Of a stretch of 64,000 nucleotides of DNA, positions 6,867-14,897 are shown one piece after another (position 1 is the stretch's first letter; each line of letters starts with the position of its first letter). The notes under the pieces are model-generated. The model was not told the origin of the DNA. It ran no database searches and worked only from the letters and a program-made list of their open reading frames with translations. The translations under genes and the position numbers were made by a program. Source of the DNA: Candidatus Binataceae bacterium. GTDB taxonomy: Bacteria; Desulfobacterota; Binatia; Binatales; Binataceae. The stretch lies in contig CAVRNO010000004.1 of NCBI GenBank assembly GCA_963722605.1, positions 410,335 through 474,334 on the forward strand, read 5' to 3'.

Positions 6867-9292
6867 AGCTCCCGCTCAGTTGGTTGAGGGACTTCGTCAG
6901 CATCGACGCGCCGGTCGAGGAAATCTCGCGCCGGCTCAGTTTCGCGGGATTAGTCGTCGAGAACGTCGAGAAACTCACGCCCGGATTCGCCCGCGTGTAC
7001 GCCGCCCGGGTGCTCCACGTCGAAAAGCATCCCAACGCCGACCGGCTCAGCCTTTGCGAGGTGGACGCCGGCCCAAAAGGCCAATTCAAAGTCGTGTGCG
7101 GCGCGCCCAACGTGAAGGCCGGGATGATGGCGGCGCTCGCTCTGGTTGGCGCGCAACTGGGCAAGCAGCCGCCGCTGGAGGCAGCCGTAATTCGCGGCGT
7201 GCGCTCCGAGGGCATGCTCTGCTCGGGGCGCGAGCTCGGCCTGTCGGATGAACAGGCTGGAATCCTTGCGCTCGGCGCGGATGCGCCGCTGGGCGGGGAC
7301 GTGGCCGCGTATTTGCACCTCGACGACATCGTGCTCGATGTCGAAATCACGCCGAATCGGGGCGATTGCCTGTCGATTCTCGGGCTGGCGCGCGAGATTG
7401 CAGCGTTGTTCGCCGCCAGGCTGCGCGCGCCAAGGCTGCGCGCGGCGCATAGCCCCGTCGCGCCCGGCGGCGAGCACGTTTCGCTTTCGGTTTCGATCGA
7501 AGCGCCCGATCTGTGCCCGCGTTACGCGGCGCTGGCGATGACCGGAATCAAGGTCGGTCCTTCGCCGGCGTGGCTTAAGCGCCGGCTGGAAGTATGCGGG
7601 ATGCGCGCGCTCAACAACGTGGTCGATGCGACCAACTACGTGATGCTCGAACTCGGCCAGCCCTTGCACGCGTTCGACTTCGGCAAAATTGCGGGCGGAG
7701 GGATTGTCGTCCGCCGCGCCGGCGCCACCAGCGAGTTCGTGACGCTGGACAACGTCGCGCGCGCTCTCGATTCAAACGATCTGCTGATCGCCGACAGCGA
7801 CAAGCCGCTGGCAATCGCGGGCGTGATGGGCGGACTCAACTCCGAGGTCGGCGACTCGACCGGGACTATTTTGCTCGAGAGCGCATACTTCGAGCCGATG
7901 ACGATAGCGCGCACCGCGCGCCGCCTGGGCTTGCGCAGCGAGGCAAGTTACCGCTTCGAGCGCGGCGTCGATCGCGCGGGACAGGTCGGCGCGCTGATTC
8001 GCGCGGCCGAATTGATCCGCAAGATCGCCGGCGGACGCGAGGCGTCGCCGATCGCCGACTTCGAGCCGCGCAAGGCCGAGCCGCGCGAGATTGCGCTCGA
8101 CCTGGGCGCGATGGAATCGCTGCTCGGCGCCGCGATACCGCCGGCCGTCGCCCGCAGCCGCCTCAAATCGCTGGGCGCGCAAGTGAGCACCCGCGCCAAG
8201 GGTGTGCTCGCGGTCGTGCCTCCGTCGTACCGCTCCGATCTGGCCGAGCAGGCCGATCTGATCGAGGAAGTCGCGCGCCTGGGCGGCCTCGAGGACATCC
8301 CGGCCCGGCTGCCCGCGCGCGTCAGCTCGCTGGCTCCGGTCAATCGCGAGCGTGATTTCTTGAAGGGCACGCGCGAGGTGATGCTGGGATGCGGGCTGAC
8401 CGAGGCCGCCACCATCGCGTTCATCGGGCCCGCCGACAACGCGCGCTTTCCGGGTATTGAAGCGGCGACGCGGCCGGTCAAGGTGACCAACCCGCTGTCG
8501 GCGGAACTGAGCGAGCTGCGGGTGAGCCTGATGCCGGGGCTGGTCGCCTCGCTCAGGTTCAATTTGAACCGCGAGGCGCGCGCCTTTCACGCGTTTGAAA
8601 TCGGCAAGACCTTTTGCATGCACGGCGACGCCGCGACCGAGCACGATCATCTCGCCGCGGTCAGCTACGGAACGTACGCCGTGTCCGCAATCGGCGAGCA
8701 GAGCGTGGCGGCGGGATTTTTTTCGATCAAGGGAATTCTCGAGACGTACCTGGAAGCGATTGGCATTTCGCCGCGAGTGGCGTACAAAGCTGTCGAGAGC
8801 GGCGAAGCGCCATTTCTTCCATTTCTGCATCCGGGGCGCAGCGCCGTGATCACGCTGGACGGCGCGGCGATCGGTTTGATCGGCGAGTTGCATCCGGCGG
8901 AAGCGATGCGGCTCGATCTGAGCGGTCCCTGCGCGGTGTATGAACTTGACTTGAGTGGGCTCATTGCCTATGGTTTCTCGCCGCGCAAAGCTTTCGAGCC
9001 GCCGCCAAAATATCCCGCGATCAGGCGCGATTTGGCGCTGGTGATGGATCGAAATTTCCCGGCGGATATGGTAGTCAAAGCCATTCGGGAGTGCGGCGCG
9101 TCGCTGCTGGAAAGCGTCGAGGTATTCGACGTGTACGAGGGGACGGCGGTGGCGGCCGGAAAAAAGAGCGTGGCGTTGGCTTGTCGTTACCGTGCAAAAG
9201 ATCGCACGCTGACCGATGAGGAGGTTAACCGCATTCACGCGCTGCTGGTGGAGCAGGCGCGGGTGCGATTAGGGGCTGAGTTGCGGAAGTAA
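6863..9292 (+). CDS. pheT: phenylalanyl-tRNA synthetase beta subunit
   Basis: 809 aa, MKLPLSWLRDFVSIDAPVEEI…, tRNA-binding, B3/4, B5 and FDX-ACB regions; ATGA overlap with pheS. Confidence 0.95.
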   Translation: MKLPLSWLRDFVSIDAPVEEISRRLSFAGLVVENVEKLTPGFARVYAARVLHVEKHPNADRLSLCEVDAGPKGQFKVVCGAPNVKAGMMAALALVGAQLGKQPPLEAAVIRGVRSEGMLCSGRELGLSDEQAGILALGADAPLGGDVAAYLHLDDIVLDVEITPNRGDCLSILGLAREIAALFAARLRAPRLRAAHSPVAPGGEHVSLSVSIEAPDLCPRYAALAMTGIKVGPSPAWLKRRLEVCGMRALNNVVDATNYVMLELGQPLHAFDFGKIAGGGIVVRRAGATSEFVTLDNVARALDSNDLLIADSDKPLAIAGVMGGLNSEVGDSTGTILLESAYFEPMTIARTARRLGLRSEASYRFERGVDRAGQVGALIRAAELIRKIAGGREASPIADFEPRKAEPREIALDLGAMESLLGAAIPPAVARSRLKSLGAQVSTRAKGVLAVVPPSYRSDLAEQADLIEEVARLGGLEDIPARLPARVSSLAPVNRERDFLKGTREVMLGCGLTEAATIAFIGPADNARFPGIEAATRPVKVTNPLSAELSELRVSLMPGLVASLRFNLNREARAFHAFEIGKTFCMHGDAATEHDHLAAVSYGTYAVSAIGEQSVAAGFFSIKGILETYLEAIGISPRVAYKAVESGEAPFLPFLHPGRSAVITLDGAAIGLIGELHPAEAMRLDLSGPCAVYELDLSGLIAYGFSPRKAFEPPPKYPAIRRDLALVMDRNFPADMVVKAIRECGASLLESVEVFDVYEGTAVAAGKKSVALACRYRAKDRTLTDEEVNRIHALLVEQARVRLGAELRK

Positions 9293-9629: not shown

Positions 9630-10096
9630 CGCCGATGCCACGCCAGCCATCGGTTGCGCGGCGAAAACCCAAGCCGGATGCGCGCGCGACGATGCCGCTG
9701 TTCCCCGAGCGGGGGCTCAAGATCGGCGAAGCAGCGCGCGCGCTTGGGGTCGAGACCTACGTGCTGCGTTTCTGGGAGACCCAGTTTCCATTTCTGAAAC
9801 CCCGGCACACCCGCACCAAGCATCGCTTCTACAATGAAAAGGACCTCGACGTGCTGCGCCTGATCAAGCGCCTGCTGCACGACGAAGGCTTCACGATCGC
9901 GGGCGCGAACAAGCACATCAAGGAATTCGGAATCGAAGCCTTAATGAGCGGCAAGCCGGTGGCAAAGCCAGCACCGCCGCCGCCGCAATCGGAGCGCACG
10001 CCTCATCGCCCCGCCGGAATCGACGGCCAAGCCCGCCGCGCACTCAACGAGGTGCGCCGCGAACTCGAATCAATCCACAAAATTTTAGAAGACTGA
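9626..10096 (+). CDS. MerR-family transcriptional regulator
   Basis: …GLKIGEAARALGVETYVLRFWETQFPFLKP… HTH_MerR; ATGA-coupled to ihfA. Alternative start at 9692 (MPLFPERGLKIG…). Confidence 0.8.
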   Translation: MTPMPRQPSVARRKPKPDARATMPLFPERGLKIGEAARALGVETYVLRFWETQFPFLKPRHTRTKHRFYNEKDLDVLRLIKRLLHDEGFTIAGANKHIKEFGIEALMSGKPVAKPAPPPPQSERTPHRPAGIDGQARRALNEVRRELESIHKILED

Positions 10097-10125
10097 GCAG
10101 CGCCCTGCGGTCGCCTACTTTTTGT

Positions 10126-10155
10126 GTCATCCCGACCGAAGTGGAGGGACCCCGG
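10126..10155. repeat. left terminal inverted repeat of retron island
   Basis: gtcatcccgaccgaagtggagggaccccgg; 27 of 30 identical to the reverse complement of 12561-12590. Confidence 0.6.
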
Positions 10156-10486
10156 ATCCGGATCTGCGTATGATCCGCGCTGAGATACCTCGCCCGTTAT
10201 TTTCACGGGAGAGGCGGCCGGCCGCCTTGCGGCCGGTAGGTGAGGGTGCAGCCGGCGAATGCTGACTCCCCTCGCGGCGCGATTTTGTGGTGCGGCGCGC
10301 ATTGCGCGCCCGTGACCGACGCGAAACTGGCTTTTCGGGCGATTTCGTGGGAGGCCAACTGTGCCCCCGCGGCGCCGGAAACACCGTGTGAACAAAACCG
10401 GCTTGGCACCTTGCAGAGGCAGGCCGTTGGGTCTGTAGCGGAGCTGGGCATCGGAGAGTCGAAACGGAAGTTCCGGCTTGCTCCAC

Positions 10487-10515
10487 TTGACGCGATACAT
10501 TCCAATTCGTATTCT
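10487..10515 (+). promoter_or_regulatory. sigma-70-type promoter of retron operon
   Basis: TTGACG-17 nt-TATTCT, predicted TSS ~10522 right at the a1 repeat. Confidence 0.45.
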
Positions 10516-10520
10516 CGTCT

Positions 10521-10676
10521 CGCTCTTAGCTGGGTTCCCGTTGACGAAACGCGAGCCTTATGCCGGGCGATTCGCCAGGCTGTTATGTATTGACCGTCAT
10601 GCTGCGGGCGGGTTTCTCACCCCGCCGAGCACGCTCAGCCGGGCTGAGAAACCCGCCGCGCTCAAAGTAAGAGCAA
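10521..10676 (+). ncRNA. candidate retron msr/msd ncRNA
   Basis: Between promoter and effector ATG. 5' cGCTCTTAg (10521-10529) can pair with 3' gTAAGAGCa (10667-10675) as a1/a2. Stem-loop GCCGGGCGattCGCCAGGC at 10562-10580. A 13 bp perfect stem GGCGGGTTTCTCA/TGAGAAACCCGCC (10607-10657) with a structured 25 nt interior, msd-like. Confidence 0.3.
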
Positions 10677-10678
10677 CG

Positions 10679-11269
10679 ATGAGCCACCCGTTCGATCATC
10701 CGGCGCTGTCCAAGCCTTTGGACAGCGCGATCAATGCCTTCAAAACAAAACGGGTTTCCTTACTTCAAGGAGCCAAGCTTATGTTCGTTTGTGGCGGGCC
10801 TACCGACTCGGTCCCGCCTACTGTACGGCAGAAGTTTCTTGATTGGGCGGCCACCAACATGCCTAATTGGAAGATGTTCTTGGCCGAGAAGGCCGCGGAA
10901 GATGCGCTCTCCAACACCAACCCGCCCCCTCTCAGACTCGCCAAATTCGAAGAATTTCTTGGCAGAGTTGCCGACTGTGTGATCGTATTCCCAGAATCGG
11001 TTGGGTCTTTTGCGGAGACGGGCTACTTCTCAGCCAAGCCCAAGGCCCTCGATAATATCTTGATCGTAAACTCCGACTCTGACGCTGGGCAAAGCAATTC
11101 ATTCCTTAACCGTGGGCCGATTGACGAAATCGAGCGAATCCCAACTAATAAGAAACTCGCGTTGGACTTCGCTGCAAACCCGCCAAACTTTTCACTCATA
11201 AAAGCGCGTCTCGAGGGAGTCCTCCCAAACGGAGGACCGGGGTCTCCATGGAGTCCTTCAAAGGTTTAA
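10679..11269 (+). CDS. retron effector, nucleoside 2-deoxyribosyltransferase-like (SLOG/NDT superfamily) protein
   Basis: 196 aa from MSHPFDH… inside ORF 10478..11269. …LMFVCGGPTDSV… glycine-rich motif and …VIVFPESVGSFAETGYFSA… matching the DSGTAFEIGYA catalytic-Glu motif of NDT. Sits immediately upstream of a retron RT, as for RcaT in retron Sen2. Confidence 0.6.
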   Translation: MSHPFDHPALSKPLDSAINAFKTKRVSLLQGAKLMFVCGGPTDSVPPTVRQKFLDWAATNMPNWKMFLAEKAAEDALSNTNPPPLRLAKFEEFLGRVADCVIVFPESVGSFAETGYFSAKPKALDNILIVNSDSDAGQSNSFLNRGPIDEIERIPTNKKLALDFAANPPNFSLIKARLEGVLPNGGPGSPWSPSKV

Positions 11270-11336
11270 GGGGCGTCGAGCAATTGGCGTTTTTGCTTTA
11301 CCTCTTCGGTTATTCCCGTCCCTCGACCTGGAAGGT

Positions 11337-12532
11337 ATGAAGCGAATTTTTCAGTCGGTATTTGGCACAGGAGGCTGGGATATTAAACGCGTGAGCCACC
11401 TCTTGTCCATCCTCGTCTCGGCGAAATACGTCGACCATCTGGCAGCCGATAACGACTATTATCATTTATCGGACCGCGCCGTCTCCACCATCGTTGATAG
11501 AGATCGTAGGCATAAACCCAGTCAACTGCTAATCCAACATCTCGATATTTATTCACGATATTTCCGACTTTGGTGCCTGCATAAAGAACTGCTGATGTTA
11601 GCTAACGTCCTAGCCGGAAAGACTGGTGTAACTGCTTTGTATATAGAGCAGCTAGCACGCTCGGCTAGTCATTTTTATAAGGTCTATACTATTGATAAGC
11701 GTAATGGTGACAGAAAAGGATCATCCAGCAGCCTTCGCGCGCACTCAAATTTCTCCAGCGCTGGATTGTCGCCAATGTTATACAAGATATTCCGATCCAT
11801 ACCGCCGCGGCGGCGTACGTAAAGGGCAGCAGCATTAGGCTGCATGCTGAGCGGCATGTTGCGAACAACTACCTTTTGAGGTTGGATTTTCAGCGGTTTT
11901 TCCCTTCGATTAAGGTGATCGACATAAGACGACATCTCGTTAAAAATCGGCCGTAGCTTCACTTTGTCGAGGACAGCGATATTGAGCTACTGGTCGCCGC
12001 AGTTACTCGCAGCGGTGGGCTAGTGATCGGCGCACCATCGTCGCCTGCCTTGTCGAATCAGATTATGTTTCAATTTGACGATCTCTTACACCGATGGTGT
12101 GCTGACTCAAACGTGACGTATTCGAGGTATGCTGACGATTTATATTTCTCCACTCGCATGCCTGGCGTCTTGGACGGTGCTCGCGAAAAGGTCGTGGAGC
12201 TTTTGAATTCAATAGACTACCCGCGGCTCCGCTTAAACGACGATAAAACGGTTCACACCTCACGGAAGAAGAAGCGGCTGGTCACAGGGTTGTCGCTTTC
12301 CTCTGACGGAAAGGTTTCATTGGGAAGAGAGAAGAAGCGCGAGATACGAAGCAGGATACATAAGCATGTCGTCGCAGGCTTGGAATCGGAAAAGCGGGCT
12401 TATTTGGCTGGCTACCTCGCATATGCGCGCTCCGTGGAACCACAGTTTATCGCTAGCTTGGACGGAAATACGGTCCAGAGACCGATGCGGGCTGTGATGA
12501 AGATGTCCCAGCCTCCAAGGTCTGGGCACTAG
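11337..12532 (+). pseudogene. retron-type reverse transcriptase, disrupted (frameshift at A4 run 11714-11717 plus in-frame TAG 11954-11956)
   Basis: Three collinear pieces align with Ec86/Ec67-class retron RTs. Frame 0 reaches …YKVYTIDKRNGD. Frame 2 carries KRIIQQPSRALKFLQRWIVANVI…GSSIRLHAERHVANNYLLRLDFQRFFPSI… up to the TAG. After the TAG comes …ELLVAAVTRSGGLVIGAPSSPALSNQIM…VTYSRYADDLYFS…NDDKTVHTSRKKKRLVTGLSLS…LGREKKREIRSRIHKH. One extra A in agaaaagga restores GDRKRIIQQPSRAL. A likelier true start is M at 11595 (MLANVLAGK…). Confidence 0.8.
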
Positions 12533-14897
12533 TAAAGCGCCCGACCTTTCGGGCGAGTACCCGGGGGCGCTCCGCTTCGGTCGGGATGACAAAGGAACGA
12601 GCGACGCAAAGAAAAAGATCCGGGATTCTTCGCTTCGCTCTAGAATGACACGGGCGCGGCGCATCGGGCGACGCAAAGAAGAAGACTGAAGAAACTAGTC
12701 GGAGAGGCGGTCTTGCGAAGCCAATTGGGCGGGGGCGGGGTTGCGGGCGGCGGCGGTATCTTTTGCGACGGAAGGCTGGGCGTATCAGAACGCCTAGCGG
12801 GGCTAGATTTAGTTCGGTTGCGCAATGCTCGGTGGCGCGATGGGCGGTGCGGCCGGCTTCTATCATTTCGGATGCTATGCATACCGCGCCGGCTATCGTG
12901 AGCGCGCCCAGGCCAAGCGCTATCTCGGGCAATCCCGCTATCGCGGCGAATCCCGCGCTTAGCGTGCCCGCCGCCAGAGCTATCTTGGTCATTCGAGTGG
13001 ATTTGATCCGCACCAGCACGCGGTTGGTGACTTTGCCCGCCTCGTGCTCTTCGTCGGCGGTCTTGAGTTCGATTCGGGTCCACGGATTGAGCCGTAGTTC
13101 GAGGTCGTAGTCGTTCCATCCGGGATCGACGATCGGGCCGTAGCCGCTGCGCGCGAACAGCTTGAGCATCCTGTCGATCAGGCGGTCGCGGGTGATGCTT
13201 TCGTTGTTCCAATAGTCCAGCCGGATGGTGCGCCTTAGCCAGTGGATGGTTGGGCGTTGGCGCACGCCGCTTTCGCCGGCGAGTGCGGTCAGGGCTTTCG
13301 CCCGCGTTTTGTAGCGCGTCATCGTTCGCACCATCGGGCCCGTGTAAGCAAGATACGCGATCAGAAGCCGCGCGGTGAGACTTTCGTGAGATTTTTCGAG
13401 CGGCGCATGCCACGCATAGTAGAGCGCCCAAATCGGCCCTAACGCGAGCATCGCAGCCGCGGGAACGATCGAGACGCCGAGTACGATCGACGCGGCGATC
13501 GCGATTGCGGAGAGCATCGTCCATTCGAGCGTCTGCGGGAGAACCATCGCCAGGGTAAGTCCGGGATCGGAAAGCGTCTGCGCGCCGGCGGTCGCGTTTT
13601 TCCACATCACGCGCATCCTGCTCCCGCCGGGAATGGTGCGCGCCAGGCCGGGAATCACCCCGCGCCACGCGATTTGGCCGAGCAGGTTGAAGCGCTCGGG
13701 ATATTTCGGAAAGAGCATCGCCTCGGCGCGTCCGTAGCCGCGCTGCTGTCCGTAGTAAGCCTTGATCGTGTTGCGGCGGAAGTGCCAGACGAAGGCGGCC
13801 GGCGAAAAACCGAGCTTGAAGCCGGCGTCGAGCATCCGCCAGCAGATGTCAACGTCGTCGCCGGCGGCGGTGAACTGCGGATCGAAGCCGCCGATTTTTG
13901 CGAGCGCCGCCTTGGCGAAGAGCATGTTGCATCCCGCCAGATGCTCGGCGCGATCGTCGGCGACCAGCACGTGGCACGGGGCGCCGGGCGAAGCGGCGCA
14001 ACTGGCTTCGATCCATCCGTCTTCGTGCGGCGCGTAGTTGGGACCGCCGCATCCGTCGAAGTTGTTTTCGACCATCGAGCGGACCGCCAGCGTCAGCCAA
14101 TGCGGATCGACGACGCAATCGGAATCGGTGTAGGCGATAATTTCGCCGCGCGCCGCCTGCATCCCGACGTTGCGCGCAACGGCGAGGCCCTTGTTGGGCT
14201 GGCGAATGAGGCGGAACTCGGGAAAATCCGTGGAGATGAGAGCGGTGCGATCGCGCGAGCCGTCATCGACGATGATGACCTCGAAATTGGGGTAGTCGAG
14301 GCGGCGCAGCGACTCGAGGCAATCGCGCATGGTGCGCTCGGCGTTGTAGGCGCAAATGACGACGGAGACCATCGGCATCCTGGGCGGCCGCGGCGGGCAG
14401 GTGCCGTTGAGGGTGACGAAGGGCATCAGCTCCGACGCGCGCATCATGCGCACGCCAAGCCAGTCGTGAGAAACCGGAGCAGGAACGGGCGGAGCAACCA
14501 CGCCAGCCGCACCCGTGCCAAACGCCACTGCGACCGCTTCGTCCTGCCCCGGCGATGCATGTTTGAATTCGATCACCACCGGCCGCGCTTCGGCGAGGTT
14601 GTGCAAGGCGACGACGAAGTCTCGAATCTGGACCGGCTCGAGCGCGGGAATTTCGGCGTAAAGAAAATCCTGTTCCAGGATTGAAAGGGCGCGGGTTTCC
14701 GGCCGGACCTTTATTCCGACAATCGCGCCGGGGGCGTATTCCTTGATCGTGTTGACGACGGCGCGCATCCGCCGCCGCGCGTTTTCGAGTCCGCCCGCGC
14801 GCAGCGCGTCCTGGCCGATCTCGCAATCGAGGATGTAACCGGCGAGCGCAGGATGCCTTCCAAAAATGTTTGCAGTATGCGCGATTCGCGAGAGCAC
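12453..14897 (-). CDS. membrane GT2-family glycosyltransferase (polysaccharide synthase-like), 3' end chimeric with island sequence
   Basis: …MPMVSVVICAYNAERTMRDCLESLRRLDYPNFEVIIVDDGSRDRT…DSDCVV…QQRGYGRAE… GT-A fold with D, DxD and Q(R/Q)xRW-like motifs, then multiple TM helices. The last ~80 codons (12453-12700) are read from low-GC island DNA antisense to the RT. The N-terminal ~185 aa before MPMVSVV is of unclear status. Confidence 0.7.
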   Translation of the reverse strand: MLSRIAHTANIFGRHPALAGYILDCEIGQDALRAGGLENARRRMRAVVNTIKEYAPGAIVGIKVRPETRALSILEQDFLYAEIPALEPVQIRDFVVALHNLAEARPVVIEFKHASPGQDEAVAVAFGTGAAGVVAPPVPAPVSHDWLGVRMMRASELMPFVTLNGTCPPRPPRMPMVSVVICAYNAERTMRDCLESLRRLDYPNFEVIIVDDGSRDRTALISTDFPEFRLIRQPNKGLAVARNVGMQAARGEIIAYTDSDCVVDPHWLTLAVRSMVENNFDGCGGPNYAPHEDGWIEASCAASPGAPCHVLVADDRAEHLAGCNMLFAKAALAKIGGFDPQFTAAGDDVDICWRMLDAGFKLGFSPAAFVWHFRRNTIKAYYGQQRGYGRAEAMLFPKYPERFNLLGQIAWRGVIPGLARTIPGGSRMRVMWKNATAGAQTLSDPGLTLAMVLPQTLEWTMLSAIAIAASIVLGVSIVPAAAMLALGPIWALYYAWHAPLEKSHESLTARLLIAYLAYTGPMVRTMTRYKTRAKALTALAGESGVRQRPTIHWLRRTIRLDYWNNESITRDRLIDRMLKLFARSGYGPIVDPGWNDYDLELRLNPWTRIELKTADEEHEAGKVTNRVLVRIKSTRMTKIALAAGTLSAGFAAIAGLPEIALGLGALTIAGAVCIASEMIEAGRTAHRATEHCATELNLAPLGVLIRPAFRRKRYRRRPQPRPRPIGFARPPLRLVSSVFFFASPDAPRPCHSRAKRRIPDLFLCVARSFVIPTEAERPRVLARKVGRFTSAQTLEAGTSSSQPASVSGPYFRPS
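12561..12590. repeat. right terminal inverted repeat of retron island
   Basis: ccgggggcgctccgcttcggtcgggatgac; reverse complement is gtcatcccgaccgaagcggagcgcccccgg. Confidence 0.6.

Follow-up and report, generated by a model that had tools for sequence, protein, structure and literature searches.

A putative type II-A1 retron with both protein genes interrupted in a strain-variable island of a Binatia-like bacterium

Within the window, by which we mean the whole 64,000-nucleotide stretch of DNA that was analyzed, a small low-GC island carries what is, judged by homology, a real retron of the ordinary type II-A1 (St85/Sen2 family), the anti-phage toxin-antitoxin kind. The cassette runs in the order msr-msd RNA (10520-10678), effector gene (10679-11584), and reverse transcriptase (RT) gene (11595-12532). 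As written, neither protein gene translates in full. We put it at slightly better than an even bet that most of the lesions are consensus errors, introduced in base calling or polishing, and that the real element is intact. Whether the lesions are read as error or as decay, the predicted toxin is as disrupted as the predicted antitoxin. The features on which these statements rest are given here by position, strand, and basis.

10101-12694, no strand: low-GC cargo island of 2.6 kb; 44 to 55% GC versus about 63%, homology of the flanks breaks at its edges
10125-10155, plus strand: left arm of an inverted repeat, 31 nt; seen only at the window locus
10378-10486, plus strand: conserved stretch, about 110 nt, preceding the promoter; found in L001, L006, L007, and L008
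10487-10515, plus strand: sigma-70-like promoter, TTGACG-17-TATTCT; conserved in homologous loci
10520-10678, plus strand: msr-msd noncoding RNA (ncRNA); fold, covariation, and a subthreshold Rfam match
10679-11584, plus strand: effector gene (St85/STM3845; NDT-like N-terminal and DNA-binding C-terminal domains), disrupted; profiles, alignments, 302 aa when restored
11215/11216, plus strand: E1, 1-nt deletion, phase 2 to 1; DNA alignment with intact loci
11307/11308, plus strand: E2, 1-nt deletion, phase 1 to 0; DNA alignment with intact loci
11469, plus strand: E3, net length change of +1; homologue length varies there (-5 versus L007, +4 versus L001)
11520/11521, plus strand: E4, 1-nt deletion (CCAAGT to CCAGT) that compensates E3; DNA alignment with intact loci
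11568/11569, plus strand: E5, 1-nt deletion that joins the effector C-terminal frame to the RT frame; DNA alignment with intact loci
11595-12532, plus strand: retron RT gene (St85 family), disrupted; profiles and homologue alignments, 312 codons when restored
11710/11711, plus strand: R1, lost T of GAT (GAT CAG to GA-CAG; GGTGATCAG to GGTGA-CAG); DNA alignment with intact loci
11954-11956, plus strand: R2, TAG nonsense codon where the residue varies; L002 (syntenic) has TAC (Tyr), L001 and L006 have CAC (His)
12461/12462, plus strand: R3, 1-nt deletion; DNA alignment with intact loci
12482, plus strand: R4, 1-nt insertion (extra C); restores the frame lost at R3, with seven codons altered in between
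12561-12591, minus strand: right arm of the inverted repeat, 31 nt; copies in other loci

The family assignment comes from profile and structure matches. With its frames restored, the RT scored 325.6 bits against the NCBIfam model for St85-family RTs, NF038233, and so passed the cut-off of 235, whereas it scored 120 bits against the Ec67 model NF038237 and failed the cut-off of 450. It also matched PF00078, and its YADD and RLVTGL motifs are invariant across the alignment, which is a statement of sequence homology only. In comparisons with solved structures, the Ec78/Ec83-type RTs (170 to 188 bits) ranked above Ec86 (123 bits) and Ec67 (54 bits). An Ec86/Ec67-class label, which had been attached to the gene in the preliminary description, is therefore replaced by St85. 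The Ec67 family proper (type I-C, RT-TOPRIM) was rejected both on its score, 120 versus 450 bits, and because the RT ends at 312 aa without a TOPRIM domain. The top PADLOC models for the cassette proteins were RT_II-A (354.9 bits) and NDT_II-A.

The effector was assigned in the same way. Its open frame alone (10679-11269) reached 105 bits against NF038232, for which the cut-off is 100, and covered only positions 9 to 140 of the 277 in the model. A first-pass splice of three frame pieces reached 119 bits and covered positions 9 to 254, so that splicing the next two frames onto the effector open reading frame (ORF) added about 13 bits. The frame-spliced effector likewise covered positions 3 to 241 of the 279 in PADLOC NDT_II-A, and the sole solved-structure match to its NDT domain was the NDT/DNA-binding effector of Ec86 (E value of 2.6e-7). 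In the classification of Mestre et al. (2020; PMC7736814), type II-A1 effectors, Sen2/St85 among them, combine an NDT-like domain at the N terminus with a DNA-binding domain at the C terminus. An effector with this pair of domains lies between the ncRNA and the RT gene in the window, and the gene order is the same in the intact homologues (81 to 87% identity).

The RT gene begins later than had been supposed. An RT of about 400 codons had been drawn from position 11337, but RT profiles from NCBIfam and PADLOC begin only at residues 87 to 92 of that ORF, and eight close RT homologues (63 to 87% identity, all 303 to 315 aa) start at the equivalent of MLANV. The start is the ATG at 11595, giving an RT of 312 codons, and the preceding 86 codons (11337-11594) encode the C-terminal domain of the effector and lie outside the RT. 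The long ORF from 11337 exists because E5 fuses the effector C-terminal frame to the RT frame.

From its start, the RT is found in three collinear pieces: 11595-11717 (phase 0), 11711-11953 (phase 2), and 11957-12532 (phase 2). In a three-forward-frame translation, YTIDKRNGD is read in one frame and the stretch from QKRIIQQPSRALKFLQRWI to KNRP in a frame set back by one base, and past the TAG at 11954-11956 that same frame runs on to the stop at 12530-12532. The preliminary description of the gene as encoding a retron RT and carrying both a frameshift and a TAG is borne out by this translation and by the profiles; the reading frame shifts by -1 near 11710-11717, an in-frame TAG occupies 11954-11956, and one extra A in the run at 11714-11717 does restore the frame. 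However, the frameshift had been placed at that A4 run, which is identical in six intact homologues. GAAAAG stands in frame in six of six, and the window alone lacks the T four bases upstream, so the true site is the lost T at 11710/11711. The TAG had also been thought the only other lesion in the RT. Two more indels, at 12461/12462 and 12482, together change ERKYGSET to DGNTVQRP, which brings the interruptions of the RT frame to three indels and one TAG. The R2 codon is His in most homologues other than the syntenic relative, and relative to the latter the change is TAC to TAG.

The effector gene had been taken to be intact. As written, its frame ends at the TAA at 11267-11269 and encodes 196 aa, of which about 180 codons are native. 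A tblastn search with the intact 311-aa effector of L007 found four collinear pieces in the window, in codon phases 2, 1, 0, and 2. Measured against intact homologous effectors of 302 to 323 aa, the predicted toxin carries five frame-breaking indels, E1 to E5, and an uninterrupted frame is lacking. A toxin left without its antitoxin had been seen as a paradox. No such paradox arises, because the effector carries these five indels and is as disrupted as the RT; its appearance came from the misdrawn gene boundary.

The noncoding part of the cassette looks different. The candidate promoter is followed by an ncRNA of 159 nt that is closed by a 7-bp a1/a2 pairing, with a1 (GCUCUUA) at 10522-10528 and a2 (UAAGAGC) at 10668-10674. 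A candidate branching G stands at 10529, directly after a1, and the fold contains two msr hairpins and one long msd hairpin with arms at 10607-10624 and 10640-10657. The minimum free energy is -76.2 kcal/mol (z of -4.75 versus shuffled sequence), and the consensus structure, with four covarying pairs, is common to four other loci. The Rfam msr model hit the expected position and strand with 24.2 bits, which is below its gathering threshold of 52 and does not count as confirmation. The ncRNA appears intact. The tip of the msd hairpin, 10624-10640, is inverted relative to the homologues (GAG..CTC here, CTCG..CGAG there) with pairing kept, and changes on both sides that keep the pairing suggest that the RNA structure has been under selection in this lineage.

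Other conserved elements surround the cassette. The conserved stretch of about 110 nt that precedes the promoter is common to retron loci in other genomic contexts and is absent from L010; at 10378-10486 we found no convincing consensus RNA structure and no conserved ORF. The 31-nt inverted repeats that bracket the cassette are 90% complementary. An equivalent of the right arm lies about 40 nt past the RT stop in L001, L008, L009, L011, L012, and L013, in at least two other genomic contexts, and the repeats may be the cassette ends or a small repeat element. In the noncoding right part of the island there are also two 21-nt direct repeats, 12598-12618 and 12665-12685, which are 90% identical and adjoin short palindromic repeat-like sequences.

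A merR-like gene and a glycosyltransferase gene flank the island, in which positions 10,450 to 12,560 form a low-GC patch (44 to 55%) in a genome of about 63% GC. Homology to contigs of the same species that hold other cargo ends at 10096-10100 and picks up again at 12695, and a Logan contig of 99.75% identity ends exactly at the island edge. A strain of 99.75% identity is present in run ERR10755942. Contigs with 96 to 98% flank identity hold two other cargos at exactly the same site. One, in L015 (8469-12855), consists of a SIR2-like (SIR2_2) gene, a gene for 178 aa, and an SMC/AAA-like gene; the other, in L016 to L021, is a Schlafen-AlbA_2/TPR gene of 734 to 753 aa where the window has its retron. 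By these comparisons, the interval from the merR-like gene to the glycosyltransferase gene is a strain-variable defense hotspot. As one that swaps a retron, SIR2/SMC-like genes, and a Schlafen/TPR gene within a species, it is a modestly useful marker of defense-island turnover in Binatia.

The nearest relative in a species-representative genome, and the only one, is in "Candidatus Binatus soli" UBA7539 (DLMJ01000046.1), whose RT, WP_428126660.1, is annotated as a retron St85 family RNA-directed DNA polymerase. Its retron region shows 81 to 84% DNA identity to the window, with the same ncRNA and the same repeat past the RT stop, but its copy is intact (effector of 323 aa, RT of 315 aa) and lies in another genomic neighborhood. 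L001, which has the same effector sequence as UBA7539, is 87% identical to the window in the RT and about 66 to 71% in the effector. A second relative, L002 (JGI contig Ga0395986_000032; also L003 to L005), occupies the same chromosomal site as the window retron, and its downstream glycosyltransferase, histidine kinase, and response regulator genes show 89% DNA identity. The L002 RT is intact, at 313 aa and 81 to 82% protein identity to the window RT. The L002 effector breaks off at about residue 125, next to an IS3-family transposase gene. The contig end at L002 1-100 (also in L003) encodes the start of the IS3-family transposase OrfA on the opposite strand (MKGSRFSEEQIIGVLREHEA), and L004 and L005 start at the effector/transposase junction; the break point is shared by four assemblies, L002 to L005.

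Within the cassette, the best-matching allele changes from part to part. For the effector it is L007 (89% in the N-terminal domain, versus 71% to L001), and for the RT as a whole it is L001 (87%), with RT residues of about 187 to 215 matching L008. This mosaic suggests module exchange among retron alleles. Searches of genome and metagenome contigs, of 5.8 billion proteins, and by exact ORF look-ups recovered no independent copy of the window allele and nothing above 87 to 89% identity.

Eight indels and one nonsense codon fall within 1.86 kb, compared with two frameshifts in the other 62 kb of the window. At the background rate, about 0.06 indels would be expected in 1.86 kb, and the clustering of indels in the cassette is not chance. 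Seven of the eight are single-base changes, and all eight fall outside runs of the same base three or more long; the six 5-nt homopolymers of the cassette all agree with the homologues. Once nine single sites are repaired, the two proteins can be aligned over their full length with intact homologues and contain no other stop. Conserved positions are broken at 4 of 88 sites in the effector and 3 of 180 in the RT, all conservatively and no more often than in intact homologues. Changes in the RT that are unique to the window number 16 synonymous to 15 nonsynonymous, compared with 5:4 to 4:12 in intact homologues, a test of low power. A mixed-allele consensus would be expected to place lesions beside sites polymorphic among alleles, but a comparison for such a preference has no power because the background is already 43 to 93%. 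The 2.4-kb genes on both sides of the cassette are clean.

Two other frameshifted genes, a thiolase and a response regulator, had been reported from the window, and both were recovered by a codon-phase model run over its whole length, which found just these two other phase changes without a gene boundary. The thiolase-like gene changes from phase 2 to 0 at about 48190 (...IAGPAEGPLSPG / PDYDFTTFTEV...), and the sigma-54-dependent response regulator gene changes from phase 0 to 1 at about 58205 (...AIAALTA / HYRWPGNVRELRN...). In L015 (ERZ25039467 contig_37155), the essential gene pheT has a private extra A at about 6975, equivalent to window position 8546, that splits the gene into ORFs of 578 and 224 aa. 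That assembly has Flye-style contig names, the extra base is outside any homopolymer, and it is probably a consensus error of this same-species ENA assembly.

Two of the three outcomes offered in the preliminary description survive these results, namely, that the effector is also inactive and that the disruptions are assembly or sequencing errors. The latter, as consensus errors in a strain-variable island, is the reading to which we give a shade over even chances. An island carried by part of the sampled population could have locally low or mixed read support, from which consensus errors could follow. Eight fixed indels unaccompanied by visible neutral substitutions are unusual in natural decay, while single-base, non-homopolymer indels resemble residual consensus errors, and two more single frameshifts lie in conserved genes of the same 64 kb. 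The size of the source contig, 937,815 bp, and the private pheT base in the same-species assembly were also counted toward error, although Illumina assemblies of the same species reach contigs of 460 to 615 kb as well, and the size is not decisive. However, the confinement of the lesions to a dispensable, horizontally acquired, and potentially toxic cassette with clean flanks resembles real pseudogenization, the five-base homopolymers in the cassette are correct in six of six cases, and one lesion is a C-to-G substitution giving a stop. A stop-making C-to-G substitution is not a usual type of long-read error. The syntenic L002, with its effector truncated next to an IS3-family transposase gene, further argues that the locus decays in this clade. 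Also weighed against error was that the searches turned up no independent assembly of the allele.

If the lesions are instead real, the retron is dead, a possibility that we take seriously but hold to be somewhat short of even. The effector would have been lost first, the selection on RT-msDNA would then be gone, and both genes would decay, leaving the ncRNA and promoter as a remnant; the E3/E4 and R3/R4 pairs may date from earlier, as frameshifts that compensated each other and that variable segments could tolerate. Such a course is favored by nine lesions within 1.86 kb of dispensable cargo between clean flanks, by the nonsense substitution among them, by the turnover of hotspot cargo within the species, and by L002 to L005, where four assemblies have an effector cut off next to an IS3-family transposase gene and an intact RT. 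The toxin has taken no less damage than the RT, which fits an order of loss allowed by toxin-antitoxin logic, an argument underlain by the toxin-antitoxin work on Retron-Sen2 (bioRxiv 10.1101/2020.06.22.160168). Against a dead retron, no relaxed constraint was seen on substitutions, as judged by a low-power ratio and conserved-site counts, the restored frames have no other stop codons, and the indels are nearly all single-base and in nonrepetitive contexts. In general mutation spectra, natural one-base indels favor runs, and by bacterial mutation spectra many fixed indels without a substitution load are unexpected in a slowly decaying pseudogene. From conserved-site counts, we estimate at most about 11 neutral RT substitutions versus three indels, which also weighs against decay. 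That ratio is at or above the upper end for bacteria. A variant in which the lesions are real and arose in one burst, with eight small indels (seven of them single-base) and almost no substitutions alongside, confined to the retron, is very improbable. Were it true, it would point to a local indel-prone process, such as error-prone repair or cDNA-mediated conversion via retron activity, or, alternatively, to repeated selection to disarm a toxic cassette.

The altered frames could mark an emerging split of the II-A2 kind, which we consider very unlikely, with 10679-11269 encoding the NDT domain by itself and the DNA-binding domain joined to the RT N terminus. In type II-A2 as described by Mestre et al. 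(2020; PMC7736814), the DNA-binding domain has been detached by a frameshift and joined to the RT, and E5 does put the effector C-terminal frame in phase with the RT start. However, the fused frame breaks 38 codons into the RT at R1 and again at the TAG, a 17-codon stretch between E3 and E4 is out of frame, and the PADLOC model for the fused II-A RT was matched via its RT part only (positions 189 to 455 of 477). Every close homologue has separate intact genes without E5, and the fusion in the window leads into a broken RT. Recoding, in which a -1 slip on A_AAA_G (11714-11718) and read-through of the TAG at 11954 would yield the RT, comes last in probability and is close to negligible. A -1 slip by tRNA-Lys would give NGDRKRII, close to the HGDQKRII of the homologues, but a slip is needed only because the window lost a T upstream of the A4 run; the six intact homologues read the identical run in the zero frame, whereas a programmed -1 frameshift implies relatives that need the slippery site. 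TAG is the commonest stop in the window, used by 14 of 33 well-defined genes, and it also terminates the RT; it is an ordinary terminator here, with no sign of reassignment or read-through. Recoding would also leave the five effector indels unrescued. It had been ranked last before, and the zero-frame A4 run in the homologues and the TAG usage of 14 in 33 uphold that ranking.

Frameshift clusters in strain-variable defense islands of metagenome-assembled genomes are best compared with the reads before they are called pseudogenes. The locus is also an example of how a misdrawn boundary and a plausible homopolymer can mislead a reading of raw sequence.

Retron-Eco1 (Ec86, type II-A3) and Retron-Eco2 (Ec67, type I-C) have core RT motifs in common with the window RT, but the latter differs from Retron-Eco2 in having no TOPRIM domain and a structure match of just 54 bits. 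The closest known counterpart is Retron-Sen2 (St85) and type II-A1, in which the toxin is RcaT and RT-msDNA is the antitoxin. Retron-Sen2 differs in its enterobacterial host, compared with a Binatia-like soil bacterium here, and in its NAxxH-type RT motif, which is HAERH or HAEKH in the clade of the window; moreover, both protein genes in the window are interrupted. The two retrons have in common the order msr-msd, effector, and RT, each ncRNA carries a1/a2 repeats with a G following a1 and forms one msd and two msr hairpins, and the window effector matches the St85/STM3845 model over both domains once its frames are restored. By analogy with Retron-Sen2, the promoter would drive the msr-msd RNA and then the effector and RT genes, and the RT is predicted to copy the msd into msDNA. 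The RT-msDNA complex would then bind the effector toxin and restrain it until phage infection disturbs the complex, as expected for this family of retrons.
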